Source: Candidatus Zhuqueibacterota bacterium | Lineage (GTDB): Bacteria; Zhuqueibacterota; Zhuqueibacteria; Thermofontimicrobiales; Thiofontviventaceae | DNA length: 64,000 nucleotides | Assembly: GCA_016931935.1 (NCBI GenBank) | Contig: JAFGDW010000300.1 | Location: 55,274 to 119,273, forward strand | Direction of reading: 5' to 3' | Part shown: positions 21,779-63,720 of the stretch, in pieces | Numbering within the stretch: position 1 is the stretch's first letter | Layout of the letters: each line of letters begins with the position of its first letter | Translations under genes and position numbers: made by a program | The notes under the pieces: generated by a model | What the model was told of the DNA's origin: nothing | Database searches by the model: none | Seen by the model: only the letters and a program-made list of their open reading frames with translations

Positions 21779-22018
21779 GGTTGCTCCTGTTTCCTGATCC
21801 GATTTGTTTGATAAGTTAAACTGAGAGCGATTTTTAATGGTTCCCATCAAAGTGAATTTCTTTTCGCGTGAAGATGTTTCTTTTATAAAACAAACGTTTG
21901 AAATAGTCGTGAAATTTTATAAGTCGAATGAAAAATCATGAACGAGCTGTCGTGTTACTCATTGTCTTTTGAACTTGCGTCCGTTGGCCATTGTCCGTTA
22001 TCCGTTATCCGTTCATCT

Positions 22019-35093: not shown

Positions 35094-35461
35094 TTATATT
35101 GCAATGATATTCCATTATGAATATTCCGGTAGAGAAAATTCATACCATATCCAGTTTCCCTATCCTCCCAACAAATCTCATATCCACCAATCGCCAAATA
35201 AGGCATTCCCAAATCGATAATAGTTTATAATTTTATCCAACATCTTCAGGTAATTCTTTCATCTATCTTCTGCCATACGGACGTTTCCTCCATTAATTAA
35301 AAAATCTTCATTTTGTTCAACAATTGTTATTTTTTCAATTCGAAAAACGATGAAGTATAAATGGAAGCATATCCGAATTACCAAATCAATGTCGGTTTCT
35401 GCAATTTTTTCTTGTGGGAAGCAGAACTGCTTATTTACTAATCAGAGGAGGCGCTACGATC

Positions 35462-38400: not shown

Positions 38401-40858
38401 ATACGGCGGTTCGGTAGCAGATATGGCCTACGATGAAGTACACGACATCGTTCTGGCAGCATTGAGCGCGCCGCAATCCGTATTTATTTCCGCTGACAGT
38501 GGTTTAACCTGGACGGCTGCATTCCCATATGATTCGTTGGAATTCTGGACCGGCCAGGAACGTCGCGGCTTTGGTGGCCGGGCTGACCAGGTACAAGCTT
38601 CCCTCGGATATTGTTATGCCAAAACCAGTCAGGAAGCTGGTACACTTACCGGTTCCCAGGTATCGTTTGATGGTATTAACTGGAAAACCCTGCTTGATCC
38701 ATACATGGTTGGCAATCTGTTAGGTACAACTTTTCCGGGACAAGCCAATGGTCAATATGCCATCGGCTCACTGTCAACGTATGGCCCGGTAGCGCTTGTA
38801 AGCGCGATGAATTTCGTATTTCGCACTACTGACGCCGGACAAACGTGGGATATTAGTGTCGTGCCAAATTCAACGGCATTTAATACAGATAAAACCATCA
38901 CGACAGTCGAATTATGTCGGGATGATCCGACGGGGCGCAGTTTTTATGTGGTGTTAACCGGTAATAACGGCTCATCCAATCCGGAATTCTATCGCACCCA
39001 TGATGGGGTTGATTTCAGTCGAATCTTTATCGTCTCCGGCGCTGATACAGTTCACAACGTTATGGGCATCACAACACATCCGTATGCCAGCGATACTTTA
39101 TGGGCAGCAGCTGTTGATGAAGGCAAGCCGACACTCGGCGGATTGTGGCGATCATACGACGCCGGAGCCAATTGGACAATGATTTACCCGGGCGGGAATC
39201 CCCATAATGCACCAATGGCAACAATTTATGAAGACATCAGCTATCCGGGACCAAATAATCTCCGAATTTTCATTGTCGGCGAAAACAAATATTCTGACGA
39301 TTTAGGCACCACCTGGGTAGAATTCAGTCCGCAAACTGATCCATATGTAGATCGTGGATCAAACGCCAGAGCGGGTATCGGTCATGTGACCAACACCGAT
39401 ATTTATTTTGCCATGGGTGACGGTGCGCCATCGCGCTCAACGACGGGTATTGATGGCTACTATCTGTTTGTGCCAACCGGACTTGAAGGCATAAATATCT
39501 GGGACATTGCCCAGGTACCTAACCAGGTTGATAAAGTCTATCTGGCAACAAGTGTCGGTATTGCCTATACATCCGAGTTTACGAATACCGCATTAACTTC
39601 CACGCAAAAATGGGCATCACCCTATGGCAATTATCCGATCAATCCGGCGCAAGGCGGTAATACCGGATTTACTGCGATTGAAATTGATCCGAACAATACG
39701 TTGCATGTTGTGGCAGCCAATGGCAATGCAATTTTTGTAACGATGAACGGCGGCTTTACCAATAACGATTGGGATGCCACCCAATATAGCGAAGTTAGCG
39801 GATTGGACGAATCCGAGTTTAAAGGACGTGGCGGCCAGGTCAGCCAGATTACATTTATCACCAGCGACACGTTGATCGCCTCTGTATTTTGTGAACATTC
39901 GCTTTATGGCGTGCTCATGCAAAGCACCGATGGTGGCTACACCTGGTCAACAATGCCACAAGCCGGTGAACATGCGTTCCGTACTGTTATTGCCGCGTGG
40001 AATAGTGCACAGGATTCGGTTGTGCTCTATGCCGGTGGAGGCCATGTTACAGAAGATGTGTTTACTCATGCCACCCTGATCGATTCGGGTGCAGTCTATC
40101 GTTCCGAAGATCGGGGCGCGACATGGTCACAAGTCTCCACGGCTCCACATGGTGTATTCAATCCCGCGCCGTATCCGTTGCCGATTAACAATATGATGGC
40201 AAAACCGGGCAGCCTGGATACGCTGTACATGGCGTGCGGTGAAAATTTGAGCAATGCCATTGTCCGAACGTTTGACGGTGGCGTCACGCTCGAATCGTTG
40301 AGCATGGCCGCAGTCGGCATGTTTGAGGGCGCGTTTGAAGCGGTGGCGATCAACAAGAATCATCCCGATAGCGTGTACTTTGCCGTTCGTCGTGATATTT
40401 TGGTGTACGATGCTGCTTCAAACACCACAGCCACAATGTTCCGCGGCTACCCGGGTGAATTGACCCACGCATTGTTATTTGATGAGTTGACAATGGGATC
40501 ATCATCCGGTTTCTACCAATTGACAGCGCCAACGAATACCGATCCCAGTGCGCTTGATGGTAAGAAAGCAACAATTCCGACACGAGTGGAACTGGCGCAG
40601 AACTATCCGAATCCGTTTAATCCATCTACCAGCATTATTTTCTCACTACCGCAGGACGGTAACGTGAAGCTGGAAGTATTCAACCTGATCGGCCAGCGAG
40701 TCGCCACGCTGCTTTCCGAACCACGGAAAGCCGGTGAACATCGCATCAGCTACCAGGCGGATGATCTGGCCAGCGGTATCTATTTCTATCGGCTACAGGT
40801 CACCTTTGCCAACGGACAGAAGCGAATTCTGTCGAAGAAGTTGATGGTGATCAAGTAG
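35462..40858 (+). CDS. Giant secreted protein: N-terminal Ig/cohesin-like domain, 5 tandem ~155-aa novel repeats with poly-Pro linkers, BNR/Asp-box-like beta-propeller region, and a T9SS type-A C-terminal sorting domain
   Basis: Start set at MQQYKK (signal peptide; AGGAGG RBS at ~35444). Repeats span aa 206-975 of the track ORF with a conserved F.F......PDS.F...FA.T.P.PADSQ.SRI core, ...LVHDG.DPF... and IEV.A..L.L. Followed by PPPPPPPPPPPTP. Then six or more SxDxGxTW Asp-box motifs (SADSGLTWT, TTDAGQTWD, SYDAGANWT, SDDLGTTWV, STDGGYTWS, SEDRGATWS). C-terminus QNYPNPFNPSTSIIFSLPQDGNVKLEVFNLIGQRVATL...SGIYFYRL matches the Por-secretion CTD signature. Confidence 0.8.
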   Translation: MQQYKKLFIITLVLLSTIFSMQIALVAQGQPPESPKGPMGIPFMLAFMPGDSAKIPVEFFESVPADSQVSGFAFTLVKNSSDLKFHGVDTAATALSHWTVDYTMSGDSIRVQANAPGGVYFTKPDGPPALLCAIRGMIYQGAAVGDSIGLQIRHVSIVKKGQTVALPDSMFGPSMIKLQTGDTPPQPGNTIAFTFLDTQSWPDSSFSIDFAVTEPVPADSQVSRIRGVMEAIPNEVMWSSSESMLSPQFSGWSLIVTPESGLVEFDLEAPNGTYLVHDGNDPFVIFSLGGNILSTSMPGTNIEVQADRLFLTIKGTELVTDPDKVHSGFIKIMGDEPPPPPPGNELSFSFGHSFSKPDSGFGLDFMITQPIPADSQLIRIHAKVVANPTEVIWTSNGQILAPELSNWALDIIPGDEFVEFELMSIDGSPLVHDGQDPFIVFNLTGVVKGYATPDHAIEVVATELELEVNNKVVTADPQIIMPGKIMLDDGENPPPPPDHGYLFSFNEAISDPGSYFNLMFALTSPVPPDSQLSRIRMVVQSMPPALNWAETGHSLQPIMSDWTLTVTPGPEATEFDLVAPPGVFLATDSSMSGLNLVLFSGEVAPDAPAQGMVDVQAKELFLTLNGVEKTIDPITVQPGKVLLGNGEEPPPGQQSLFAFFDTFSKPDSNFAMEFAITQPIPADSQLSRICAVVRAMPQELDWSPTGHMLAPGMESWSLNVTVGNDSMMFDIQAPTGQFITHDAMVPLVLATFVGGVRPSASVEQNIEVKAENLKLTIKGIEHEFDPGMIQPGKVRLNNNPDGPPPGGESLFIFFDTNAEPGTDFLLDFAVAMPVPADSEISRLQIGLKIEPNLLVWNADESKVAEELADWTLTSTAAGDSMEFDLQSTSGSFLVHDGFDPYRIATLAGSVQASAPQNAIIQLTATKIYVTMHGVVTSIPPTSIPPVKIMLGGHVGPPPPPPPPPPPTPISSGDGRMNLGLYGGSVADMAYDEVHDIVLAALSAPQSVFISADSGLTWTAAFPYDSLEFWTGQERRGFGGRADQVQASLGYCYAKTSQEAGTLTGSQVSFDGINWKTLLDPYMVGNLLGTTFPGQANGQYAIGSLSTYGPVALVSAMNFVFRTTDAGQTWDISVVPNSTAFNTDKTITTVELCRDDPTGRSFYVVLTGNNGSSNPEFYRTHDGVDFSRIFIVSGADTVHNVMGITTHPYASDTLWAAAVDEGKPTLGGLWRSYDAGANWTMIYPGGNPHNAPMATIYEDISYPGPNNLRIFIVGENKYSDDLGTTWVEFSPQTDPYVDRGSNARAGIGHVTNTDIYFAMGDGAPSRSTTGIDGYYLFVPTGLEGINIWDIAQVPNQVDKVYLATSVGIAYTSEFTNTALTSTQKWASPYGNYPINPAQGGNTGFTAIEIDPNNTLHVVAANGNAIFVTMNGGFTNNDWDATQYSEVSGLDESEFKGRGGQVSQITFITSDTLIASVFCEHSLYGVLMQSTDGGYTWSTMPQAGEHAFRTVIAAWNSAQDSVVLYAGGGHVTEDVFTHATLIDSGAVYRSEDRGATWSQVSTAPHGVFNPAPYPLPINNMMAKPGSLDTLYMACGENLSNAIVRTFDGGVTLESLSMAAVGMFEGAFEAVAINKNHPDSVYFAVRRDILVYDAASNTTATMFRGYPGELTHALLFDELTMGSSSGFYQLTAPTNTDPSALDGKKATIPTRVELAQNYPNPFNPSTSIIFSLPQDGNVKLEVFNLIGQRVATLLSEPRKAGEHRISYQADDLASGIYFYRLQVTFANGQKRILSKKLMVIK
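35546..38340 (+). repeat. Tandem in-frame coding repeats (~465-480 bp unit, ~6 copies counting the diverged first domain) inside the giant CDS
   Basis: Periodic protein motif (PADSQ[VL]SRI) recurs every ~155 aa. Units are separated by Pro-rich linkers (PPPPPPGN, PPPPPDHG, EPPPGQQ, GPPPGGE, PPPPPPPPPPPTP). Diverged at ~30-40% aa identity, so ancient rather than recent duplications. Confidence 0.6.
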
Positions 40859-48669: not shown

Positions 48670-49638
48670 ATCTCCCCTGCCGCATAAATGATCAAATATC
48701 TTCACTGCCTGATCGCGGGAATTTTCAATTAAGTATTTGCCCGTACGCATACCGCCACAAACAACGCCCGCAAGATAACAACCCGGAACGTTCGTCTCAT
48801 GTGTCCCCGGATGAAAAGCCGGCGCCTTTATATCATCGTTGGAAATTTCAATTCCGATCGATGTTAGCAATTGATAATCCGGATGATAACCGGTTAATGC
48901 CAACACAAAATCATTCTCCAGTGTGAATACACCGTTTGGTCCATTCACATCGATTGTCTTCTCATGAATCGCTGTCACCTCCGTATTGTAATATGCTTTA
49001 ATACGGCCTTCTTCAATACGATTAAGAATATCAGGACGAATCCAGTATTTTATGCCGTGACTTAATTCAGCCTCGCGTACAATCAACGTCACATCCACTA
49101 ACCGACGGCAGCCTTCAAGCGCGGCTTGCGCTGCCGAATTGGCGCCGCCAATGATTGCCAGTTTTTGAAACGCATACGGATGAACATCCCGAAAATAGTG
49201 ACTCACCTTCGGCAACTGTTCTCCGGGAATACCCAACATATTCGGCTGATCGTAAAAGCCGGTAGCAATTATCACAGCGTTCGCTCGGTAGCTCCCGTTG
49301 TCCGATTCAATTTCAAAGCCATCATCACTTCGTTTGACTCTAATTACTCTCTCATAAGAATGGATATTCAATTGCCACGCGGCTGCCACACGCCGATAAT
49401 ATTCCAGCGCTTCGCTACGTACCGCTTTATCACCATGGGAAACAAACGGAATATCGCCAATTTCCAATCGATCCGAAGTAGAGAAAAAAATCATGTTCGT
49501 AGGGAAATGATACAGCGAATTGACCAGGCACCCTTTTTCAAGAATCAGATGAGAACGCTTTCTCCGTTTCGCCTCAATGCCGCAGGTCAGGCCGATCGGC
49601 CCGGCGCCGATAATAATAATGTCATATTTCACAGTCAC
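48661..49638 (-). CDS. YpdA-family putative bacillithiol disulfide reductase (FAD/NAD(P)-binding pyridine nucleotide-disulfide oxidoreductase)
   Basis: 325 aa. YDIIIIGAGPIGLTCGIEAKRR Rossmann fold, EKGCLVNSLYHFPTNMIFFSTSDRLEIGDIPF (YpdA-type signature), a second GxGxxA site (IIGGANSAAQAA), and ~325 aa length. Confidence 0.65.
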   Translation of the reverse strand: MTVKYDIIIIGAGPIGLTCGIEAKRRKRSHLILEKGCLVNSLYHFPTNMIFFSTSDRLEIGDIPFVSHGDKAVRSEALEYYRRVAAAWQLNIHSYERVIRVKRSDDGFEIESDNGSYRANAVIIATGFYDQPNMLGIPGEQLPKVSHYFRDVHPYAFQKLAIIGGANSAAQAALEGCRRLVDVTLIVREAELSHGIKYWIRPDILNRIEEGRIKAYYNTEVTAIHEKTIDVNGPNGVFTLENDFVLALTGYHPDYQLLTSIGIEISNDDIKAPAFHPGTHETNVPGCYLAGVVCGGMRTGKYLIENSRDQAVKIFDHLCGRGDKK

Positions 49639-49767
49639 ATCCTGAATGTTTGTTTACGATAATTTTCATGGATTAAAATTTCATGCAAAGTCAAGCGACG
49701 GTATCTCATCAAGCGAGACTATCACTTAATTTCCTTTATTAAAAATTGAATCATATCAAGCTTATTA

Positions 49768-49812
49768 AACAAAAAAGCATGGCCGCAGGTTCATTTTCCC
49801 CTTGGCCATGCT
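49768..49812 (-). terminator. Rho-independent terminator downstream of the first PilX-like gene
   Basis: agcatggcc(49776-84)/ggccatgct(49804-12), 9-bp GC-rich stem. On the minus strand it is followed by ttttttgttt. Confidence 0.55.
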
Positions 49813-49841
49813 TATAAAATTCGCTGTATTTATAAAATAAT

Positions 49842-50762
49842 TTAATCGTTCCAGGAAAGTATTTTCATTATTTTTTTACTGCCGCCTACATCACCAAACA
49901 ATTCCAGGTACTCCGGATTATATTGAATCGACACATGATTTCCGGTACCGGAAATGTCACCATTGGCCAAAATGCCGCCTACAACAGAACTCTCTGATGG
50001 AGAACCTCCACCGGTAAAATCCATTTCATAAATAACTTCTGATGTCGGATTTAACATATAAAGTACGCCTTCTACACGTGCAGATCCATTAATAACTATA
50101 TCTTTTTCCACGATAAAAATGCCATAAATATGTGTTCCACCACTGACTTTCATATCGCCTTTAATGTAGGTAATATTGGGAATTCCGGCTGCAGAATCGG
50201 CGTAAAAACTGCCATTGGGATATCCATCAGGAGGTTTGACCAGATCATTTGGATCGCCAAAATAATGCCCCTGAGAATCTGCCTTTGTTGCGAGGCCAAG
50301 AATATCAATGTATGGCATTTCACTGGCATTTGTCACCATGAGTGTGCTGTCGACATTGCGATTTTCGTCGAGCGGGGTAACTTTGTCAACATCACCGGTA
50401 GCATAAATTGCTTGCAGACCGACTTCAGATGTCAATTTCAAATCAACAGATACCTGATTCGTATAACTAGCCACATGTCCGACAGAAGTAAGACGCACAA
50501 GCGAATCCATATCATTGATACTTACTTCAAACGAGCCCTCATTACTGGACGTTTCATCGTACCCATCCCGCCAGTTAAAATTGCGTGAGATTTTTGAGAG
50601 TGCAAGGTTCATTCCGGATGTTGCCATATTCAAAGCGCCAATCTGTCCATATTCTTCAACCATTTGTTCGTGCTGCATTGACATACGATTTTGCTGGGTC
50701 ATCAATCCGGATGTAATTGTAAAGCTGATCCCTGCTAAAATGAGGAGTATTGCTTTTCCCAT
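49842..50762 (-). CDS. PilX-like (type IV pilus minor-pilin/assembly, PilX_N-like) membrane-anchored protein, paralog A
   Basis: 306 aa. N-terminal anchor MGKAILLILAGISFTITSGLM, followed by ...ALNMATSGMNLALSKI (PilX_N-like A..AEaG..A helix). C-terminus VEGVLYMLNP...GGGSPSESSVVGGILANGDISGTGNHVSIQYNPEYLE is typical of PilX-like proteins. No prepilin-peptidase G/FTLIE motif. Confidence 0.4.
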   Translation of the reverse strand: MGKAILLILAGISFTITSGLMTQQNRMSMQHEQMVEEYGQIGALNMATSGMNLALSKISRNFNWRDGYDETSSNEGSFEVSINDMDSLVRLTSVGHVASYTNQVSVDLKLTSEVGLQAIYATGDVDKVTPLDENRNVDSTLMVTNASEMPYIDILGLATKADSQGHYFGDPNDLVKPPDGYPNGSFYADSAAGIPNITYIKGDMKVSGGTHIYGIFIVEKDIVINGSARVEGVLYMLNPTSEVIYEMDFTGGGSPSESSVVGGILANGDISGTGNHVSIQYNPEYLELFGDVGGSKKIMKILSWND

Positions 50763-51203
50763 AACACGTCCCCCTTGAGTTTACCAAACACCATTATCAT
50801 TTTTTGTGTGTTTAAATTACAAAACGATAAATTTGATTGTGAATATCATTAATTACCATTTATTTAGACACAATTTAAGAATCGACTTCGAATGGTTACT
50901 AAATCACAACCTGTTTTCATTTTGCCATTGCTATTCAAAATTAAAACATAATGGGACACCATTTTGCTGTAATGGGAAAAGCGAAAAAATGTGGACTGCC
51001 ATTTTAAAACAATTAATTGAGCTGATTTTATAAATGACAGAAAGCAGTACTATCATTATGCCTTAAGGTCGCGCTTAAATTCACCTCCCTTCGCTGAATG
51101 GATCATTGGCTTTTACGGAATTTAAAATTATCAATTAAAATACATAATCATAACCTAGCAAGTAACGCCTAGTCGACTTAATAAACATTTGTAATAATTA
51201 TGA

Positions 51204-52118
51204 TTAATCTTTCCAGGTAAGAATTTGCATAACTCTCTTGCTCTGCCCAATCGAGCCAAATAATTCCATGTATTCTGGCTTATATTGTACCGAAATATGA
51301 CTTCCAGTTCCGGATACATTGGCGTTTGCCAATACCCCACCAACCACAGAGCTCTCTTCAGGGGTACCACCACCTAATGCTGTCAAATCGTAATAAACTT
51401 TTGCGGTAGGATTAAGTAAATACAAAACTCCTTCGACACGAGCTGATCCGTAAAGGATAATATCCTTTTCAACAAGAAAAATTCCGTATATTCTACTTCC
51501 ACCCTGAACTTTCAGAGTACCTTTGATATATGTAACATTCGGAACGTTCCCGACCTTATAAAAACTCCAGTTTGGGTAGCCGTCGTAAGGTTTGATTATA
51601 GCAGACGGGTCTCCAAAAAATTGGTATTGACTTACTGATAATTGTATCAACGGGACCAGATTTAACAATGGCATGGCATCGGCATCCTGAATCAATAAGG
51701 TGCTATCGACATTTCGATGCTCATCCAAAGGTATGACGTTATCTACCGTCGCCGTCGAATAAATCGCATATCGTCCGGCTTCTGTGGTTAATCGTACATC
51801 CACCTGAACTTTATTGCTAGCACCTGATGAATGACCTGTCGACGTAATCCTTACGAGTGAATCCATGTCATTGACTTGCACATCAAATGACCCTGATGAA
51901 ACTGAAGTCTCGCTATAACCTTCCCGCCACGTATAATCACGTTTAATTTTAGAAAGCGCCAGATTCATCCCCGAAGTTGCCAAATTCTTTGCGGCTAATT
52001 CTTCGTATTGTTCAACAACAATTTCATTTTGTTCGCTGATCTGTTTTTGGTGATTTACCAATCTGGTTGAAAAAGTAAAACCAAGACCAGCAATTATCAT
52101 TAACATTGCTTTGCCCAT
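51204..52118 (-). CDS. PilX-like membrane-anchored protein, paralog B (~55% aa identity to paralog A)
   Basis: 304 aa, same architecture. Shares LATSGMNLALSKI..., SGSF.V.VNDMDSLVR.TS.GH, NVDSTL, NVTYIKG.LKV.GG..IYGIF.VEKDI...GSARVEGVLY.LNPT and ESSVVGG.LAN...SGTG.H.S.QY.PEY.ELFG with paralog A. Confidence 0.4.
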   Translation of the reverse strand: MGKAMLMIIAGLGFTFSTRLVNHQKQISEQNEIVVEQYEELAAKNLATSGMNLALSKIKRDYTWREGYSETSVSSGSFDVQVNDMDSLVRITSTGHSSGASNKVQVDVRLTTEAGRYAIYSTATVDNVIPLDEHRNVDSTLLIQDADAMPLLNLVPLIQLSVSQYQFFGDPSAIIKPYDGYPNWSFYKVGNVPNVTYIKGTLKVQGGSRIYGIFLVEKDIILYGSARVEGVLYLLNPTAKVYYDLTALGGGTPEESSVVGGVLANANVSGTGSHISVQYKPEYMELFGSIGQSKRVMQILTWKD

Positions 52119-52399
52119 AACCGACCCCCATCTTCTTCACGACAATGTTATTATTTTTAGTATCTTCTCAATATGTAATGGAGTGAACCTGCTTAATATT
52201 CACATTTCCAAACAAAATAGTGAGTGAAACGTGAGACGAAAAAATCATTCCGAAATTCACGTAACCGCCAAATATTGAAAAGATACAAATTCGTTAATCT
52301 TTAAAAGAACAGTGTATTCAGCATTTATTTGCCGAAGATATCCTGGAAACATGAACACTTTAACTATACAGACAAACTGTCGAGGTTGCGAAGTTATAT

Positions 52400-53071
52400 T
52401 TAGTTAACATTTGTATTCGTCAATGGTACGAAGACTGTATCATGCACCGACTTATAAATATAAATACAATCGCGGTAGACGGTATCGGTTTCCGCTTTAA
52501 TATATTCTACCATTTTATCCGGTAGTCGCGCTGCCTGGTCAGGTATTTCCATCAGGCGATTTTCATTATAACTCCACAACTCAAAAATCACCGTTGAGGT
52601 ATCCCGTTCAAACCGGATTTTAATAGGATAATCTTTGTAATTCTTGTTCAGGCCAGTAAGAATCGATCCGAAAATATTGTACGCCGGTCGATTATTTTCA
52701 TAATCTTCCAAAATACTAATATCTTTATTTTGAGCGGTGATTTGAAAGTTCGCAGTAAATTTCCACTGGTTCATTTTCGCCTGTGCCTTATCGCTGACAT
52801 ACTGAAGAAAATAAATTTGATCCGATGGATACAGCCGTACAATATCATTTTCCCCAAAACCATTCAGGCTGACGTCGATGATATCCATGCGCGTCACCAG
52901 CGTTTCGGGAATAAAAAATTCATCGAGAAAAAATTTGATAAGCTTACCGTCTTGAATCGTGACCAACGGTACACTGGTTTGATTGACAATTAATTCATCG
53001 CCGGCGTGAACCGAAATTGTTTGAATCAAGAATATAGTACTAATAAAAAAAAGTACGATCATTGATCGCAT
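52400..53071 (-). CDS. Hypothetical secreted protein (last gene of the exbBD-containing operon)
   Basis: Start set at MRSMIVLFFISTIFLIQTISVHA (signal peptide), 10 nt after the upstream gene's stop. The track ORF extends 43 codons further into the neighbouring gene. Confidence 0.45.
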   Translation of the reverse strand: MRSMIVLFFISTIFLIQTISVHAGDELIVNQTSVPLVTIQDGKLIKFFLDEFFIPETLVTRMDIIDVSLNGFGENDIVRLYPSDQIYFLQYVSDKAQAKMNQWKFTANFQITAQNKDISILEDYENNRPAYNIFGSILTGLNKNYKDYPIKIRFERDTSTVIFELWSYNENRLMEIPDQAARLPDKMVEYIKAETDTVYRDCIYIYKSVHDTVFVPLTNTNVN

Positions 53072-53081
53072 TTCGTGCTCC

Positions 53082-54119
53082 TTATCGCATGGTTTTCGTT
53101 TTTGCAGTTGTCCACCATGATAAAAATATTTTATAAAAATCTTCGGTGACTTCAGGGGTGGGTGTTTTTTGTTGGGAAATAAATGATGAAATCGTGCCAT
53201 CAGCAGCCCGTTTGATTGAGCCCAGCCGTAAGTAGTTGCTTTTCTCTTTCAATCCGCTATCGATGAGCAGCGTTAAATTATTTCGTTCGATTAAACAAAT
53301 TCGAATTTCCAAAATATTTATTTTGCACAGCAAAAACAACTCGTATACTTTTGAATTTATTTCAAACCGCGTATGTGACGTAAGATTTCCCGGCTCATAA
53401 TTTAAAAACCGTTTAAACACACTGCTAAATACCACGGGATTCGATTGCATCCACTGAATCAATTCGTGAATAATTGGCGATAAATCCTTTTCGTTTTCCT
53501 TAATGTCATCCGGGCGCAATTCAATTTTTATAATTTCCGCATCGGGGATTGCCTTGTCTACTTCCAATTTGTTAAATTGCGTTGGTGCAACAAACCGGAA
53601 TGCCTGCAAATCCAGCGGGGTGTCATCCGGCAAATCGACGATAATTTGTGGCACCTGTCCGGCTTCGGGAAACGGCACATCGTGCAGACTGGCGTATTCG
53701 GCCTGCTGCATCGAGACATTTACCTGATTCTTTGGCTGTTGATGCCGGGCGAACTGCATTTGCCGATCCACTCGCTCAGTCTGTGGAACAGCCAGCGCCT
53801 GGTATGTTTTACGGGGAAGGTCCAGCTTGCTGGTGATGTCCGCATCCAGCGATTCAATTGACGGGATAATAATTGCATTGTCGCGGTATCGCGTGATTTT
53901 GTCATCGGGCTGCGGTAATCGTGAATGGCCGGTTTTCTTTGGCGTTGTTTCTTCAATATGAAAAATTGTCCAGTCGATTTCTTTCTGTGGTGCACGAAAC
54001 AGATACTTCCCCGGAGATACCCGGATTCCGGCGAGTAACAAGTAGGTAAAAATCAACCCGATCATTAATATAAGATCGCAGATGCGTTTTTCTATTTTAA
54101 CACGATCACTAAATTTCAT
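53082..54119 (-). CDS. Membrane-anchored hypothetical protein in the TonB position of an exbB-exbD-exbD operon, with no recognisable TonB C-terminal domain
   Basis: 345 aa. N-terminal TM ICDLILMIGLIFTYLLLAGI and a modestly Pro/Gln-rich middle. Its start overlaps the exbD stop by 11 nt. Confidence 0.45.
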   Translation of the reverse strand: MKFSDRVKIEKRICDLILMIGLIFTYLLLAGIRVSPGKYLFRAPQKEIDWTIFHIEETTPKKTGHSRLPQPDDKITRYRDNAIIIPSIESLDADITSKLDLPRKTYQALAVPQTERVDRQMQFARHQQPKNQVNVSMQQAEYASLHDVPFPEAGQVPQIIVDLPDDTPLDLQAFRFVAPTQFNKLEVDKAIPDAEIIKIELRPDDIKENEKDLSPIIHELIQWMQSNPVVFSSVFKRFLNYEPGNLTSHTRFEINSKVYELFLLCKINILEIRICLIERNNLTLLIDSGLKEKSNYLRLGSIKRAADGTISSFISQQKTPTPEVTEDFYKIFLSWWTTAKTKTMR

Positions 54120-54510
54120 AATGAATGCTCTTGGGAATGCCGTTCATTTCACACAGGTCAATCAGATCGACGGTTGTTTGAATCATTGTATTTTCGTCCG
54201 GGTAGATTATCACCATCATATCCATGCCCTGCGCACGCCAATCGTCACGCACACGCTGGATCAATGCATCGACATCGGATATTTTGGTGATCAATGGCCA
54301 AAAGGTATCACCGCATGATAGCTGGAATTCGGTATCGCTATTAACGCGAATGGTTAATACCTGTCGTTTGACAATCGCCGGACTTTCGTTTCCACCGGTA
54401 GGAAGTTTAATTTGGGTTTTGACAGTAAAATCGGAAATACCGATAAAACCGAGTAATAATATCAACACAACATCAATTAACCGAATGATGAGACCACCTT
54501 TGCTGAACAT
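54109..54510 (-). CDS. exbD: ExbD/TolR biopolymer transport protein
   Basis: 133 aa. GGLIIRLIDVVLILLLGFIG TM plus an ExbD periplasmic domain. Confidence 0.8.
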   Translation of the reverse strand: MFSKGGLIIRLIDVVLILLLGFIGISDFTVKTQIKLPTGGNESPAIVKRQVLTIRVNSDTEFQLSCGDTFWPLITKISDVDALIQRVRDDWRAQGMDMMVIIYPDENTMIQTTVDLIDLCEMNGIPKSIHYEI

Positions 54511-54567
54511 ATGTAAATGACTCCTGATATTGTCTATTTAATATTTCACAGATACAAAATGCCCGAC

Positions 54568-54966
54568 TCATTTCCCTTTCCGAATCACATCAATGCCTTT
54601 CAGCAACTGCCGCTGATCACAAAGGTTTGCCAGTGCGATGGTGTATTTTATCGGCGTATCCCAATTCGCGCGAATTTGCACCCGTGGCCGTTTTTCAGAA
54701 TCTTCCAGGCCAGCGAGCTGTTTGTCTATATAGCCAACAAGTTCATCATGGGACGTGAGCGTTTGCGTTTCATTGTCCACAAGAAAATTCCCATCCCGAT
54801 TAATCCCGATAATTAAGGTTTCCCCGTTTGACGGATTGGTAAGTGGCGTGGCTTCACTCGTTGGCAGCTCAATTTGACTATGCCGACTGATTTCACTAAT
54901 GGAAATAAAACCAAATAACAGAATCAGCACCACATCAATCAGCCGAACGATTATTCCACCTTTTTG
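54568..54966 (-). CDS. exbD: ExbD/TolR biopolymer transport protein (second copy)
   Basis: Start at MQKGGIIVRLIDVVLILLFGFISI. Paralog of the downstream exbD. Confidence 0.8.
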   Translation of the reverse strand, partial: QKGGIIVRLIDVVLILLFGFISISEISRHSQIELPTSEATPLTNPSNGETLIIGINRDGNFLVDNETQTLTSHDELVGYIDKQLAGLEDSEKRPRVQIRANWDTPIKYTIALANLCDQRQLLKGIDVIRKGK

Positions 54967-54970
54967 CATG

Positions 54971-56473
54971 CTATTGCCCCAATACTTCAAATTCTATTTT
55001 GGAACGACGCAAGCCCTTGGCGGTCACAACGATTGAATTGAATCCCGGCTCGGTATTCAGTGTGAAATAACTTTTGGCATATCCGTTTGAATCGGTTTGT
55101 GCAACATAACTATTGCGATTGCCCGGGAAGTACCCTTTCCCCATTTTGACTTTAAAAAGCACAGTTTCATTGGGAATCGGATTCTTGAAACAATCGAGTA
55201 ACTGGACAACAAACGGTTCACCAATTTCCCGACCTGCGGGTAAATTTTGATGATTCCCGGATACATATTTTAGCTCGGATGGATCTGCCGGACGCCCCAG
55301 TGCTTCAAACTGGACAAATTTACCGTTATTGTTCAGCCGGGCATTCACAATATTAGTACCGGCAACATTGCCCAGTGTCAGATATGTTTCCGCCAGCCCT
55401 GCTTCATCGGTCAAAATTTCTTCAACTTTATTGCCGTTTTTAAATGTACCGTTGCCATTTTCAATTTTGAAAGTAACCAGTTGATGGATCATACTGTTTC
55501 CGTCTTCATCGTGTACTTTTACCTGCAACGGTTTTTTAAGACGTGTATTCACGGGCGCCGCCTGATGATCTCCGGCCAGCGGTGCAATTGTCAGGTGCTT
55601 CGGCACGGATTCCGGTTCCGGCGTGACTTTTTTCTCGGAAGTAAATAAGTTCTCATCTTCAAAATCATTAATCTCTGCTGCTTCATGTTGCGGCGCTTGA
55701 TAGCGGAAACCTTGTTGCTGGGAGATGAGCAACCGCAATCTCAATTCTTCACCTTTAGTCAGAATCGTATCCATCTGTTTGCGAAATGCACCCTGCAATT
55801 GGGTTGAGAAAAAATTCAAAACAATACTGACGACCAATCCCATCAACGTGGTGACGAGCGCCAGTCCCATTCCATGGAGTATCACTTGATTGTCGAGATT
55901 TCCACGGAAAAATGTAACGAACATTCCCCAGACAGTTCCCAACAAACCGAGCGCCCCGGCGGTATCCGATAAGAACGATATTTTCGATTGGAATGTGCTG
56001 AATTTATCCTGCTGTAACTGAACATGATTGGTTATTTCGTAATGGGCATCGACCGCCGAATTTGTCGAGCGATACACATTCAGCATGTTCATGTATAGCT
56101 GATGGAGTAAATTATTCGGTGTATTTTGTACTGTCTGTTCGATATGCCGGAGCGATGCCGCTTTTGTATTCAATTCTAGAATATCTTTTGATCGGCGTTT
56201 GTCCATAAGTAAATCGGCATATCTGTAAAGCATTGTGGCTAAGCCAGCGACCAAAACCAGGATAATCACCCAGCGTAATCCACCAGCCAGTCGGGTGATT
56301 TCCCAAATCGATTTAAAATCGGATAACCGGGTTAAAGAGCCGGGATCGACCACTTGAGCAGCGGCAACATCGAGCGTCGAATCGATTGCTGCTGCCGCCG
56401 GGGCGTCCTGGCAGAATCCTTGTGAAGTCACAAGGATTATAAACATCATGAATAGAAATGCAACGCGCTGCAT
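54971..56473 (-). CDS. MotA/TolQ/ExbB proton-channel family protein with a ~230-aa C-terminal extension containing two Ig-like (Big/invasin-like) domains
   Basis: Start at MQRVAF (signal peptide). Three TMs with the ExbB signature AGALGLLGTVWGMFVTFF / GMGLALVTTLMGLVVSIVLNFF. C-terminus LQVKVHDEDGNSMIHQLVTFKIENGNGTF...EILTDEAGLAETYLTLGNVAGTNIV... and a second similar unit ...TVLFKVKMGKGYF...AQTDSNGYAKSYFTL...NSIVVTAKG resemble Big_1-type beta-sandwiches. Confidence 0.7.
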   Translation of the reverse strand: MQRVAFLFMMFIILVTSQGFCQDAPAAAAIDSTLDVAAAQVVDPGSLTRLSDFKSIWEITRLAGGLRWVIILVLVAGLATMLYRYADLLMDKRRSKDILELNTKAASLRHIEQTVQNTPNNLLHQLYMNMLNVYRSTNSAVDAHYEITNHVQLQQDKFSTFQSKISFLSDTAGALGLLGTVWGMFVTFFRGNLDNQVILHGMGLALVTTLMGLVVSIVLNFFSTQLQGAFRKQMDTILTKGEELRLRLLISQQQGFRYQAPQHEAAEINDFEDENLFTSEKKVTPEPESVPKHLTIAPLAGDHQAAPVNTRLKKPLQVKVHDEDGNSMIHQLVTFKIENGNGTFKNGNKVEEILTDEAGLAETYLTLGNVAGTNIVNARLNNNGKFVQFEALGRPADPSELKYVSGNHQNLPAGREIGEPFVVQLLDCFKNPIPNETVLFKVKMGKGYFPGNRNSYVAQTDSNGYAKSYFTLNTEPGFNSIVVTAKGLRRSKIEFEVLGQ

Positions 56474-56489
56474 GTCAATCTCCTTAATT

Positions 56490-58193
56490 TCATTGCCGTT
56501 TCGCATGTCGCACTGCAGGGAGTGACTGAGCCTCCTGCTGTAATTCCGGTGTCATGACCGCCGGCTCAGTCGAAAAGTCAATGCTCGTTCGTTGATGTCG
56601 AGTCACAATTACAAGCTGCCCTTTTGCGGAACGTTGAATATTTTTATTGTCATAAGTCCAGGTGAACTGATAAGAATATACGCCAGGGCGCAGCTTTTCC
56701 ATGATCGGTTTGTCCAGTTCCCATACAATCCGTGAAGGAATCCGGCCAATACCATCAAACCATTGGATGCCCAGCCCCTTGTCATCCTGGATTATCAAAT
56801 GCCACGATTTTGCCCGGCCACGTCGTCCTTTAATGCGGAATTCGATGCGGTCAGGGTTACATTTATAAGATTCGTTCGATTGATTGGTTAATTTCTGATC
56901 ATTTTTTCCCGGCATTGGTAATTTTTCACGGCGGATTCGGGCAGTCGGGATCGCCTCGAGCAACTCGTCCGCTACCTTTGTGGAGTCACGCATTAAAATC
57001 TCCGCGATGCCGTTCGCCGGATCGATCACATGCTGTCCAACCTTTTGTAATGATTGCTGATATGCCGCTGTCAAGATTTCTGTTGAATCCTTTGAACCAC
57101 CAATAAAAACGATATACCGTGTTTGCGATTCTGGAGCAACGGGTTTATTTATTTCAGTTTTTAATGCGGTGGTCAAATGCCGCCACTCACGTTTGTTCAA
57201 TTTTTCATCGACACGCTCTTCAGAACAAATTCGTTGAACCTCAATCTGCTTTACCGAAGCGTCTACCTGAAGCAGTGCATCTTCTACCGGTGGTGCGGCT
57301 TTATAATTGATGATTGGACGTTCATCACCAAAAGCAAATACCAGACCAACCTGATGCGAACCGATGCTGAAATCCTGAAATTCATTCGTCGGATAGTCGT
57401 ACGTGTAGAACATTTGCATACGATCGGCAACACTCAGTCGTCCCTCGAATTCAATACCATCGGACGTATAACCAAAACGTAATATGCCGCGATCGTTAAT
57501 TTTATAGTCAAGCATTCCGCCGAGCGTTTCCTGATCCAGCAGTGTGATACCAGCAGCGAAACTGCCACGCATATAGCTAATGCCAACATCGAGACGATAA
57601 GGCAGGCGCGCGTCACCGCCGACAAGCGATAAATTTGGCTCGGTTAAATTACTCATGCCGACACCGATCCGCAAATCATAGCGCGGCTGAAACAATAAAC
57701 CAACGCCTACACTATGCGCCAGCGATTGCACGCCATTGGCAAATAACGGATCGTTCGCATCACCCAACTGAAACTGATCCTGCTGATACGACTGATAGAA
57801 GATTTGCCACGATGCTCCCACACTTAGCGATTCCAGCAACCGATAGGCTGTCTGTGCCTGAATGTGTGACTGCTGGTACATCGCAATGCCAAATTGCTGC
57901 CCGTTGATACCAATCACCCACTCACGATCCAACAGGAACGGACTGGTAATATTGAAATAATTCGCCCGCAAGCCAAACTTGTCCTGCTCAAGAAAGCCAA
58001 CGTGCAGCATCTTAACACCCAGCGATACATGCCACGGCTGCAGTGCAATCACAGCCGGATTAATCAGCGAACTGCGGCAATCAAACACATCCGCCGGATT
58101 GCTGTCAATCCAATGTTGGGCTTTCAGCGGCCCGACTGCCACAAGTATGCTGATGGTGACAAGAATGAATGTTTTCGGACGATTTAATTTCAT
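56490..58193 (-). CDS. PorP/SprF-like T9SS outer-membrane protein with ~270-aa C-terminal extension
   Basis: 567 aa. Signal peptide MKLNRPKTFILVTISILVAVGPLKAQ. The N-terminal ~290 aa carry ...SSLINPAVIA (family NPAxxG/A motif) and an alternating beta-strand pattern. It lies directly downstream of a type-B-CTD cargo gene, which is the classic sprB-sprF arrangement. The C-terminal part (WHLIIQDDKGLGIQWFDG...PGVYSYQFTWTYDNKNIQRSAKGQLVIV) is beta-sandwich-like. Confidence 0.5.
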   Translation of the reverse strand: MKLNRPKTFILVTISILVAVGPLKAQHWIDSNPADVFDCRSSLINPAVIALQPWHVSLGVKMLHVGFLEQDKFGLRANYFNITSPFLLDREWVIGINGQQFGIAMYQQSHIQAQTAYRLLESLSVGASWQIFYQSYQQDQFQLGDANDPLFANGVQSLAHSVGVGLLFQPRYDLRIGVGMSNLTEPNLSLVGGDARLPYRLDVGISYMRGSFAAGITLLDQETLGGMLDYKINDRGILRFGYTSDGIEFEGRLSVADRMQMFYTYDYPTNEFQDFSIGSHQVGLVFAFGDERPIINYKAAPPVEDALLQVDASVKQIEVQRICSEERVDEKLNKREWRHLTTALKTEINKPVAPESQTRYIVFIGGSKDSTEILTAAYQQSLQKVGQHVIDPANGIAEILMRDSTKVADELLEAIPTARIRREKLPMPGKNDQKLTNQSNESYKCNPDRIEFRIKGRRGRAKSWHLIIQDDKGLGIQWFDGIGRIPSRIVWELDKPIMEKLRPGVYSYQFTWTYDNKNIQRSAKGQLVIVTRHQRTSIDFSTEPAVMTPELQQEAQSLPAVRHAKRQ

Positions 58194-58240
58194 AATTAGT
58201 ACTTGAAACGTACAATTGTTCTATCAATTTCTGTGCATGG

Positions 58241-58357
58241 ACATCCCCCTGATTCCATCTCGCTGCCCGCAAGCGGGGCGAGGTAGAATATTCCCCCTTC
58301 GAAGGGAGACGATCTCATTTCGCCGCTTGCGGCAACGAAACGGGATCAGGGGGATGT
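58241..58357. repeat. Compound palindromic element in the adhesin-porP spacer
   Basis: Outer 13-bp inverted repeat acatccccctgat(58241-53)/atcagggggatgt(58345-57). It encloses three internal palindromes: ctcgctgcccgcaagcggggcgag, cccttcgaaggg and gccgcttgcggc. Confidence 0.45.
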
Positions 58358-58382
58358 TCGCACTAAACAATTTTAAACTTCA

Positions 58383-61300
58383 TTACCGCGCCAATACCAC
58401 ATATCCCCGCGATACATGGCGATCTCCGTCCTGGAGTACGTACAAATACACGCCCGGTAAAACTAATTGTCGGTCGCGGTTCATTCCATCCCAGACAAAT
58501 GTTGATGCGGATGGGGTATGTAACGTAATGACCGGTCGCCCCTGCATATCAAATACTTTTAATGAAGGGTGACTTAGCTGGAACCGTGAAAAATCAAATT
58601 CCACTTCGTCGTTAAATCCATCATTATTCGGGGTGAACGGATTGCTGCTAAGCCGCAATTCACCTTCGTTGACACGGATATAGATATCCACGACATTGTT
58701 CGTCTCATCAGATTCGGTGATACGATTGTCCGGATCGACGGTAAAACGAATCAGGTGTCTGCCAATTGTATCAAATTGCACGGCTGCATCCATCCTCTGT
58801 TCAAAAGACACTGGCAGATTATTCACTGTTTCCGCGTCGATGATTTCACCTTTGTGTTCAAACTTCATATCGAATGGCTGCTCCACGTCAACTTCGTTCG
58901 CGATCACCTGTCCGTGAACATTCACAGATGAATGAACAAGCAAAGTGGTGCTGTCCGCTGAAATCGACGCCACCAAATCGGGTAACGCTTCACGAATAAA
59001 AAAATACGATTGCCAATTTTGCAGACAATTTGCCGGTTCGCTGAGATCGCATGCATCAACGCGTACAGTCACTTTTTCTCCTGATGCAAAACCTGTATCC
59101 GGTGTGTATTCAATTATAAATTCATTCGGAGTACCGGAAATATCAGGTGTTACATCAATATTATTCACCTGCACCTGAATGCTCTCCTGCGATACGCCTG
59201 CAACATCATCCAATAATCGAAATAGTATCGTCGGTCGGTTCAGTACATTGGTTTCGCCTGGTGCAGGTTGCATATCGACGATGTAGGGCGCAATAGTATC
59301 AACACGCGTCCAAAAAATAAATTCAGCATCGCTTTTGTTCGGCGGCACGATCAAATCGGCTGCATTCGCTGAAATACGGATTTGCTGATTGTATGCAAAG
59401 CGATTTTCGGGCTTCCATTCAACCGTTGTGTATTTGGGTGTTCCAGCAATATTGGGTTGGACAATTTCATTATTCACTCGTAACTGAATCGAACCAGCGT
59501 CCACTCCACTTTGCGTGTCCGTAATTTCAAACTGAAGTGAACTGGTAACAGGAACTTCAACGGCAGAATCGCCGGGTGAAATAAATCGAATAACCGGCGG
59601 CTGCACATCTGTTTCGGGATAAAATACGTATTTTTCCGTCGGCATTATGTTAGGAGTATCCGCAAGGTCAGCAGCGTCAATTTCCACTGTTACGCTGTCG
59701 CCATAAGAAAATGGCGTCGCTGGTTTGTACATTAATTGATAATCATAAACAAAACCGTTAATCATCGGTCTGACTGACCGGCCATTGATGCGCATTTTAA
59801 TTGATTGTAGATCGACACCCGACTGCAAATCCGCCAGATGCACGGCGACGGAATCAGTAATCCGGACATTCGTTTGTCCGGGCGTCGGATGGTGGCCGTA
59901 AGTAAACGGCGCTTGTCTGTCACGTCGGTCAGTCAACTTGAACGTGTAGGTTGAATCCAACAAATTTGCCGGATGTGAAAGATCGCGTGCATGAATCCGA
60001 ACACGAATTTGCTGGCCATGCGCCTGATTGGGTGGCATGTGTGACGACACAAACCAAACATCCCCTTCGCGATGCATTTCCAACACCGATGCCATTGAAA
60101 CGTCGTTCACCACAATCCCAACCGCCGATGTATCGACGCCGGCGACAGCATCCGTTAATCGGAAGGCAATATGGGCGGATGGTAGCACGCCTGTATCTCC
60201 CGGTGCAGGCGTTAAATAGCTCAAAATCGGCGGCTGCTTGTCTTCTATGATTGAAAATGAATAATCATCGGGATTCATCTGATTGGGATGCCGGGCATAA
60301 TCCTGTGCGGTCAGCCGGACAGAGACAATTTGATTGTACTGAAATAGTGTATCCGGTTGCCAGCTTATCCGATACCCCTGACTGAGTTTCTGAAATGATG
60401 GCACGACACTCCCGCCATTCACGCGGAGATTGACGAAACTGGTGTCGACACCGCTCATATCGTCCTGAATAGTCATCGAAATGGCTGTATTTCTGGGCAC
60501 CTGCTCAGCCGACTTTGCCGGTTGGTGCGCCGATGTCCAGGGCGGAAGCGAATCCCGCAATGTATAAAACTGATACTTCAATTCAGATGCATTTCCCGGC
60601 TGGGCCCTATCCTTTGCGGTAATGCGGATATTGATAGTATCATTTTCCATAAATTGCTGTGCTGGGTGAAATGTCAGTGTGCTGCCATCCACAAGCAGCG
60701 GTTCTGCATTTTTGGCATCGACATACAAACGCACATCGGCAACACCCGTGCGATCATCCGTTACTTTGAAAGAAATATTCGTATTCAGTGGGACATTCGT
60801 TTGACCTGCTGTTGGCGATACCGGTGCTATCACCGGTCCCAATGTGTCCTGTGCAATAAAGAATCGATAGAAATAAGGTGGCTGAATCGCATTCGGCGGA
60901 TTTGATTTATCGGCTGCAGCTACTGTGACACTCACGGTATCATTATAGGCAAACGACAATTCGGGCATCAAAATCCGTGTATGCAACATATCGCCATCAA
61001 TTGTCGTTGGCACAAGCGGATTATTCTGCACGTGCACCTGTATCGTGTTCCAATCCACACCAGCGATTGTATCCGCCAGCATAAATTGAATGGCGAGCTG
61101 TTTCACATCATTGGTCGAATTTGCGAGTGGATAAACAGGCACAACCCGGGGGGGCGTCACATCACGTTGCAGGGAAAATTGATACGATTCATCCATAGCA
61201 TTTGGCGTGTATGCCATATCCTGTGCTGTTACACGAACAGTCACATGATTATTGAATAAAAACGGAGTATTCGGCTGCCAGGTGAGCGTAATTATTTTGT

Positions 61301-63224: not shown

Positions 63225-63720
63225 GATGCTTTGGTGCAATAATCTTGTTTTGGATTTTTTAAAGATAAATAGGATGGACGAAATTATCCTATGTTCCCTT
63301 TCCACGGCTGCAAATATAGGATGGCTTCCTCCATTTGAACTGCTTTATCAACTGGAGGTTTGTAACAAAGATGATAGAACTTGCGACTACATTATAGCAA
63401 AAGGTTGGCTAAAATGCAAGTTTTTTTTACTAAACAGAGATAATTTTATCAATAAATATATTATCTTTATGGGATTATAATAAAATCAAATATATCATTT
63501 CAATAGATACAAAATGTTAACCCAATATTCTCAACCACTAATACGCATCAAAAAAATGTCACCATTCTATCAATATTGTAACTTTTCTTGAATTACCGGA
63601 TTGTAATTCATAAAAAACAATATAGCTATGAAAGATAATTTGTAATCGTTCACAGGGTTTCAGAATGGTACTCCAATTTTTGGTGCCCTACATACTGTCT
63701 TCAGGAAACAGTTGATCAGA

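Follow-up and report, generated by a model that had tools for sequence, protein, structure and literature searches.

In the minor-pilin complex at the tip of type IV filaments, the capping subunit is one without Glu5 (PMC10191384). In ComZ, a large β-solenoid is built into the pilin framework, an architecture which has been argued to fit at the pilus tip only (PMC6561018). Similarly, in all cyanobacterial PilX homologs a triangular β-solenoid resembling that of ice-binding proteins interrupts the pilin fold ahead of the C-terminal strand and has been proposed to act as a tip plug; the Synechocystis proteins PilX1-3 are likewise without Glu5, several such paralogs prime different filaments, and PilV partners accompany the cyanobacterial PilX proteins also in cases in which their genes lie apart (bioRxiv 10.64898/2026.02.12.705559). 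In Streptococcus sanguinis PilB and PilC, a functional module is grafted onto the pilin module in a manner described as 'cut and paste' (PMC8179133, PMC10191384). Here, we analysed two neighbouring genes, referred to as paralogs A and B, which reside on a 64,000-nucleotide stretch of the 159-kb contig JAFGDW010000300.1 (the whole stretch being referred to as the window) from a metagenome-assembled genome (MAG) of candidate division KSB1, and whose products are annotated in the database as hypothetical proteins. With a probability of roughly 0.8, A and B are K-type minor pilins, i.e., pilins of the PilX/GspK/ComZ class, of a type IV filament and would provide alternative tip subunits for a machine that is encoded elsewhere in the genome. 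Pilins of the K type lack Glu5 and cap the minor-pilin complex that starts filament assembly. The evidence comes from homology, the predicted fold, the absence of Glu5, the pilus-cluster context of the gene in relatives and the constraint on both sequences.

Sequence relationships, predicted fold and constraint of the two paralogs

The initial annotation had described two genes for products of about 305 amino acids (aa) on the same strand, roughly 55% identical, each with an N-terminal membrane helix and a conserved C-terminus, preceded by spacers of 280 and 440 nucleotides (nt) and provided with a terminator of their own. This description proved accurate. Both open reading frames (ORFs) are intact, and the products share 58% identity and 79% positives over their full length (BLASTP, E 2e-140). 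The conserved motif at the C-terminus reads VVGGILANGDISGTGNHVSIQYNPEY in A and VVGGVLANANVSGTGSHISVQYKPEY in B, and each protein starts with a hydrophobic helix (MGKAILLILAGISFTITSGLM in A, MGKAMLMIIAGLGFTFSTRL in B); positions and spacers are compiled in Table 1. Among 5.8 billion sequences, A and B are reciprocal best matches, with 406 bits as opposed to 227 bits for the next sequence, and 31 further homologs at 33-44% identity were identified in a large protein database. The family alignment contains 20 invariant columns, all of which are retained in both A and B. A search of 1.84 billion cluster representatives with the family profile yielded 2263 matches at E <= 1e-3, of which 306 remained at E <= 1e-10 and 75 at E <= 1e-30, mostly proteins of 300-350 aa, and we place the family at about 300 to 2,000 clusters at the 50% identity level, most of them outside Pfam.

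The proteins had also been likened to PilX_N (PF14341). A direct Pfam search with this model was empty for A and B, even at E <= 1, and direct-scan matches to bMG6 (E 0.1) and AmpH (E 0.012) were regarded as noise. The likeness was recovered by way of the relatives and the predicted structure: of the 30 close homologs in the alignment, 11 match PilX_N (best E 3.8e-7), as do 9 of 41 more remote family representatives (best E 6.3e-10), and the matching homologs align with A and B from residue 1 over the full length. The Pfam family DUF7305 (PF23981) was found in neither A nor B and is weakly matched among the relatives (one of 30 close homologs, E 0.0084; two of 41 distant ones, E 0.0012); we found no paper describing this family, which is an absence of evidence within the searchable literature only.

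In the AlphaFold (AF2) model (pLDDT 85.9, pTM 0.71), DSSP assigns a helix from residue 2 to 60, a four-stranded sheet (71-112), a strand-rich region (119-281), a second helix (283-293) and a last strand (297-305). The long N-terminal helix packed on a β-sheet represents the lollipop fold of type IV pilins, while the strand-rich region is predicted to form a right-handed β-helix head of about 160 residues which, as the β-solenoids of ComZ and cyanobacterial PilX, appears to be inserted ahead of the last strand. Foldseek returned ComZ as the sole significant match (E 2e-4, probability 0.99), and the best matches of the pilin module were GspK and XcpX. Neither protein possesses Glu5, as is characteristic of a capping pilin of the K type: the first glutamate stands at position 32 of A and position 29 of B, so that in any register none occurs within the first 28 residues.

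Between the two genes, the proportion of nonsynonymous differences (pN) is 0.27, while that of synonymous differences (pS) amounts to 0.78 and is saturated. As pS is saturated while pN is low, the pair stems from an old tandem duplication, and constraint has acted on the two copies ever since. The value of pN is about equal in the pilin module and the head (0.27 and 0.28), which gives no sign of a faster evolution of the head.

The regions upstream of A and B are similar only in their last ~50 nt, as determined by alignment, and this part consists of an AT-rich box located ~30-45 nt before the ATG and of the ribosome-binding site; the box may be a promoter element. The two genes are located away from filament machinery, and each has a ribosome-binding site, and probably a promoter, to itself. 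Because the clusters of relatives described below encode sigma-54 activators, we searched for sigma-54 sites, none of which was found at <=2 mismatches in either spacer, and the count across the window equals chance. Scans for sigma-70 and terminator patterns yielded no excess over shuffled sequences. The only match to Rfam within positions 49500-52500 was a group I intron, which, at 20 bits compared with a threshold of 50 bits, was dismissed as chance. The hairpin following A has a folding energy of -22.2 kcal/mol (z = -3.73), and 0 of 200 shuffled sequences fold equally well; it was missed by the simple terminator scan because its loop is long. No comparable terminator was found downstream of B.

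Gene context in relatives and the M-G pilin lineage

To place the family in its genomic setting, contigs were fetched for three homologs, a genome scan provided 13 loci and a metagenome scan 39 loci, which were annotated with reference proteins from the first clusters. In all three fetched contigs the gene lies inside a type IV filament cluster. Filament genes adjoin the homolog in 12 of the 13 genome loci and in 29 of the 39 metagenome loci, and nine of the ten metagenome loci without filament neighbours have short flanks. Taken together, each of the informative loci, about 45 of 56, shows the homolog within a filament cluster. The homolog is located either between I/J-like minor pilin genes and a gene for a PilT-like ATPase, in a cluster that also has PilC-like, PilB-like and PilN/O-like genes and a secretin, or, in a second cluster type, after canonical GFTLIE pilins.

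Two layouts can be distinguished. Clusters of type 1 begin with a histidine kinase-response regulator (HK-RR), T2SSE (MshEN), a sigma-54 regulator and T2SSF. Canonical GFTLIE pilins then precede the PilX-like gene, which is followed by a Big_1 protein of 896 aa and a protein of 256 aa, and the PilX-like protein carries a leader of 20-45 residues ending in Gly. Clusters of type 2, which stem mostly from KSB1 MAGs, begin with a histidine kinase, a sigma-54 regulator, a response regulator, a 133-aa pilin, T2SSF and a 598-aa T2SSE, continue with minor pilins of 165 and 169 aa, the PilX-like gene and a 395-aa PilT-like T2SSE, and end with a PilN-like/SPOR protein of 865 aa, a protein of 304 aa that weakly matches PilO, a secretin and Big_1 proteins. 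Their PilX-like protein starts with MGKA, MGRA or MGQA, as do the paralogs in the window. That the proteins of 165 and 169 aa are genuine minor pilins is shown by their homologs in locus L016, which carry canonical leaders and the N_methyl motif. At the same locus (7877-9922), the J-like minor pilin is a modular pilin of 681 aa in which the N_methyl motif is combined with Big_7 and fn3, another example of a pilin with grafted domains. The type-1 clusters (L001 7523-9238 (-) and 11093-14563; L002, L005, L008, L011, L012, L046) always include, on the opposite strand, a Rax2-like protein with a type IX secretion system (T9SS) Por_Secre_tail, and the 896-aa Big_1-repeat and 256-aa proteins follow directly after the PilX-like gene. 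This composition may indicate a link between the pilus and T9SS surface proteins in those organisms.

Additional copies of the gene occur repeatedly. Locus L056 has two copies (45% identical) inside a type-2 cluster, and two copies at 54% identity are present in L042. A second orphan tandem pair, encoding proteins of 303 and 311 aa that are 48% identical and have conventional leaders, is located on L058 (8515-10546). Its flanking genes, one for a membrane protein and one resembling homocysteine methyltransferase genes, are unrelated, and filament genes are absent from about 8 kb to each side. At the locus of the closest relative (P0003; L018 1-2888), genes for I-like, J-like and K-like minor pilins are repeated in tandem as a module. 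The last ORF is partial and terminates in the C-terminal motif of the K type (GGIIANGDVRGTGNHV), which suggests that this contig end is chimeric.

A common trait of the type-2 clusters and of those resembling locus L021 (see below) is that every pilin-like ORF starts with M-G at the first available start codon (L004 4878-10930, with the same layout in L006, L007, L009, L013, L014, L021, L033 and L044). All 11 distinct sequences of the 133-aa pilin, the candidate for the major pilin (MGQQQLLLLVLG...), start with MGQQQ, most of the 165-aa (I-like) pilins with MG-x-R-E and the K-type proteins with MG(K/R/Q), and many J-like pilins also begin with M-G. If the Met is taken as residue 1, position 5 is occupied by Glu in the pilins of the I-like group and by Gln in the candidates for the major pilin. 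As M-G stands at the first possible start codon, the leader can comprise two residues at most. The register of this start relative to the canonical L016 pilin (GG/FTLLEV) is ambiguous by 1-2 residues in the alignment, and annotation of the 20-kb loci around these clusters revealed no gene for a prepilin peptidase. The M-G start is shared by A and B. Both ORFs open at the first start codon following an in-frame stop and, therefore, the N-terminus of M-G-K-A and some 18 hydrophobic residues cannot be longer. The hydrophobic stretch spans residues 4-21, M-G is the only possible leader when judged by class III signal peptides (IPR012902), and the Gly aligns, within a register ambiguous by 1-2 residues, with the Gly at position -1 of the relatives with long leaders. 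We found no paper on pilins with an M-G start, an absence of evidence that extends to the searchable literature only.

A candidate for the partner machine came from the T2SSE P0168 of KSB1 (MBN2013291.1), whose accession number is 915 above that of A. Like the window proteins, P0168 was not on record in the look-ups, whereas a control protein from another MAG of that study was. At 590 of 591 positions, P0168 is identical to the ATPase encoded on L021, which is a contig of 7 kb derived from a public sequencing run. This contig encodes an MGQQQ pilin, T2SSF, T2SSE, two minor pilins starting with MGTRE and MGDHIV, and, at the K position, a protein of 418 aa (5642-6898). The first 129 residues of the latter are recognised by the family profile (E 1e-20), share 32-40% identity with A and B and display the motif SK-x-x-RDYTWR-x-GY, and the remainder is a DUF4900 domain and not a β-helix. 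The same pilin module is, thus, joined to a DUF4900 head instead of a β-helix, which implies that a head swap has occurred. Probably, the source MAG has an M-G-lineage filament cluster on another contig, with its own K-type pilin bearing a different head. Since the K-position pilin of this cluster shares the N-terminal module but has a DUF4900 head, A and B are best read as alternative tip subunits by which the same machine might be equipped with different tips.

Based on these findings, we propose that the N-terminal hydrophobic helix anchors A and B in the inner membrane, with the small pilin β-sheet and the ~160-residue β-helix head, apparently inserted before the last β-strand, following behind it. 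As K-type pilins cap the initiating complex, A or B would join an I-like and a J-like minor pilin, prime the pilus and end up at its tip, where the modelled head might plug the tip and/or bind to a surface or polymer. It might further be speculated, tentatively and from sequence comparisons, that in the M-G lineage, i.e., KSB1 and allied MAGs, pilins are made mature without a prepilin peptidase or with removal of a dipeptide at most, and that the K-type tip pilin is a swappable cassette, one machine possibly building different tips. The idea of a cassette draws on the occurrence of a β-helix or a DUF4900 head on the same pilin module, on the recurrent tandem copies and on orphan copies outside the cluster. 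If true, an assembly that dispenses with processing by prepilin peptidase would be an exception to a rule that is regarded as universal for type IV filaments.

Alternative explanations and the neighbourhood in the window

Several observations weigh against A and B being tip pilins of a machine encoded elsewhere. In the 64-kb window, pilus machinery, partner minor pilins and a prepilin peptidase were all not found: Pfam searches of all ORFs >=150 aa did not detect T2SSE, T2SSF, secretin, N_methyl or A24 peptidase, a six-frame scan yielded no G-F-T-L-I-E-type (canonical prepilin) motif, and hidden Markov models of the relatives' pilins had no match, as the initial annotation had anticipated in noting no other type IV pilus genes. 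A filament machine accompanies the gene in the relatives and not in the window, where also the order of 165-aa and 169-aa minor pilin genes followed by the PilX-like gene is absent. Neither A nor B is directly matched by a Pfam or NCBIfam model, and the family profile has no match among PDB sequences, so that the assignment to the K-type class rests on transitive homology and predicted structure. The insertion of the β-helix before the last strand was read from the order of secondary-structure elements and not from model coordinates, and the M-G-K-A terminus, being without a conventional leader, makes processing by a prepilin peptidase uncertain. Moreover, the evidence that places the L021-type cluster in the same MAG is circumstantial, and among 44 matches to the 865-aa PilN-like protein of type 2 none is from this MAG; possible reasons are a cluster of a third type or gaps in the MAG.

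The lack of machinery and partner pilin in 64 kb, together with the missing ortholog of the 865-aa cluster protein, would also be expected if the two genes were non-functional remnants, left behind when a pilus cluster was lost or rearranged. We consider this quite improbable, as neither ORF is disrupted, the ribosome-binding sites are strong, a terminator follows the pair, every invariant residue of the family is retained, and a saturated pS of 0.78 at a pN of 0.27 points to purifying selection on both copies since the old duplication. In addition, the orphan state is found a second time on an unrelated contig (L058), and tandem copies recur (L056, L042). A role as pseudopilins of a type II secretion system (T2SS), i.e., as GspK equivalents at the tip of a secretion piston and not of an exposed pilus, is improbable as well. 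It is suggested by the best matches of the pilin module, GspK and XcpX, and by the GspE/GspF-type ATPase and platform and the secretin in the relatives' clusters, but the same clusters also have the 395-aa PilT-like ATPase and PilN/O-like proteins and are without signatures of GspC/L/M. The architecture of the whole protein matches ComZ and cyanobacterial PilX, both of which belong to pili, and a bulky head of 160 residues fits an exposed tip better.

In the window, the paralogs are directly downstream of, and on the same strand as, a cluster consisting of an ExbB-ExbD-ExbD module, a PorP/SprF-like protein and a T9SS type-B adhesin (Table 1). The initial annotation had noted the position of the two genes next to this motor/adhesin cluster and suggested that they may represent an orphan, minor-pilin-like surface component. 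A recruitment of the paralogs as pilus-independent surface or envelope components of the cluster might find further support in the Big_1 proteins that accompany the family in the pilus clusters of relatives, as a Big_1 domain is also present in the ExbB of the window. However, this domain displays no specific similarity to the Big_1 proteins of the pilus clusters (best E 0.098) and was rejected as a link. None of about 60 relative loci harbours homologs of the ExbB, ExbD, 345-aa, 266-aa, PorP or adhesin proteins of the window, so that the adjacency is not conserved; the paralogs are set apart by the spacers of 281 and 441 nt, and the predicted fold is that of a pilin, which would require a filament to be displayed. 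Such a recruitment is therefore highly improbable, and the link to the motor/adhesin cluster is a local coincidence. What is maintained of the initial interpretation is that of PilX-like minor pilins encoded away from a pilus cluster; the homologs of relatives sit in filament clusters, as fits a conventional pilus role, which is the very finding that the initial annotation had named as speaking against its reading, and there is no tie to the neighbouring ExbBD and T9SS genes.

Table 1. Position of the paralogs, their putative signals and the adjacent gene cluster in the window.
Feature	Position	Strand	Remarks
Paralog A	49842..50762	(-)	306 aa; MBN2012376.1, JW960_23810; PilX/GspK/ComZ-class minor pilin with β-helix head (predicted)
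A, residues 1-60, N-terminal α1 helix	50583..50762	(-)	starts M-G-K, hydrophobic from residue 4
A, residues ~119-281, right-handed β-helix head	49920..50408	(-)	predicted ice-binding-protein-like (DUF3494-type) fold; followed by helix and last strand
Paralog B	51204..52118	(-)	304 aa; MBN2012377.1, JW960_23815; architecture as in A
Ribosome-binding site of A, GGGGG	50770..50774	(-)	7 nt before ATG; read from the sequence, conserved with site of B
Ribosome-binding site of B, GGGGG	52125..52129	(-)	6 nt before ATG; read from the sequence, aligned with site of A
AT-rich box before A	50793-50809	(-)	ACACAAAAAATGATAAT
AT-rich box before B	52147-52163	(-)	ATACTAAAAATAATAAC
Spacer between B and A	50763..51203	(-)	441 nt; similarity to the sequence preceding B confined to the last ~50 nt
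Spacer upstream of B	52119..52399	(-)	281 nt; contains AT-rich box matching that of A
Intrinsic-terminator-like hairpin	49770..49812	(-)	GCAUGGCC...GGCCAUGC + U6; ~30 nt past the stop of A; 9-bp outer stem
Two proteins without family match, 345 aa and 266 aa	52400-54119	(-)	between ExbD genes and B
Two ExbD genes	54568-54990 and 54109-54510	(-)	PF02472; missed by the initial annotation
ExbB/MotA-family protein	54971-56506	(-)	C-terminal Big_1 domain; overlaps PorP gene by 17 nt
PorP/SprF-like protein	56490-58193	(-)	upstream of paralogs
Big_5/CARDB protein	58383-63305	(-)	1640 aa; T9SS type-B (CHU_C) sorting domain; upstream of paralogs

The adjacent cluster is unusual in itself, as a T9SS cargo/PorP pair is apparently coupled to an ExbB-ExbD-ExbD proton-channel module (54109-63305). 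The 345-aa protein has an N-terminal membrane helix. As listed, its ORF overlaps the 266-aa ORF by 119 nt; the start of the latter is probably Met44, which would give a signal peptide (MRSMIVLFFISTIFLIQTISVHA), and a terminator-like hairpin (53054-53070) coincides with this probable start. Downstream of the paralogs lies a pyridine-nucleotide-disulphide oxidoreductase gene, and the remaining genes of the window include those for housekeeping, lipid A, BAM/TAM, efflux and T9SS cargo functions. Further T9SS elements are a PorV-like protein (20834-21850 (-)) and a Sortilin/BNR-type protein of 1814 aa with a Por_Secre_tail (35414-40858 (+)), indicating that the organism relies heavily on the T9SS for its surface proteins.

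Comparison with described tip pilins

The interpretation of A and B as alternative tip subunits assigns a concrete and testable role, that of pilus tip subunits with an ice-binding-protein-like head, to two hypothetical proteins and their family, and it removes as unsupported the tempting link to the neighbouring ExbBD/T9SS adhesin cluster. Head swapping and orphan copies suggest a route by which one machine could diversify its tips. The parts most worth following are the lineage of pilins with an M-G start and the orphan copies with swapped heads.

With regard to GspK/XcpX of the T2SS and PilX of type IVa pili, the resemblance concerns the pilin module, while the head in the window proteins is a predicted β-helix and not the helical insert of GspK, the genes are not part of a cluster, and PilX_N is not matched by the paralogs themselves. 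The likeness of the head to ice-binding proteins (IBP-1/DUF3494 fold) is one of predicted fold only, as no Pfam match places A or B among them by sequence. The tapirins of Caldicellulosiruptor, which were also compared for their fold, are not pilins. As in the modular pilins of S. sanguinis, a further module is grafted onto a pilin module; here, one N-terminal module is found with two heads, a predicted β-helix in the window and DUF4900 on L021. The heads differ from the vWA and lectin grafts of S. sanguinis, which occur in a monoderm host and for which adhesion was demonstrated by experiment.

The closest counterparts of A and B are ComZ and the cyanobacterial PilX proteins. ComZ of Thermus thermophilus (PDB 6qvi), the tip pilin of the competence pilus, is similar in architecture, but has about 500 aa compared to 305 in the window paralogs, is only about 10-13% identical, possesses a conventional prepilin leader and binds DNA together with PilA2, whereas no partner pilin is encoded near A and B. 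The architecture described for cyanobacterial PilX matches the model of the window protein, a likeness drawn from the description and not from sequence comparison; the cyanobacterial proteins belong to another phylum, and the paralogs of KSB1 differ from them by starting with M-G without a conventional leader. Proteins of this kind are, thus, already known: A and B are unannotated members of the tip pilins of the ComZ and cyanobacterial PilX type with an ice-binding-protein-like β-solenoid, and they extend this architecture to the uncultured phylum KSB1.

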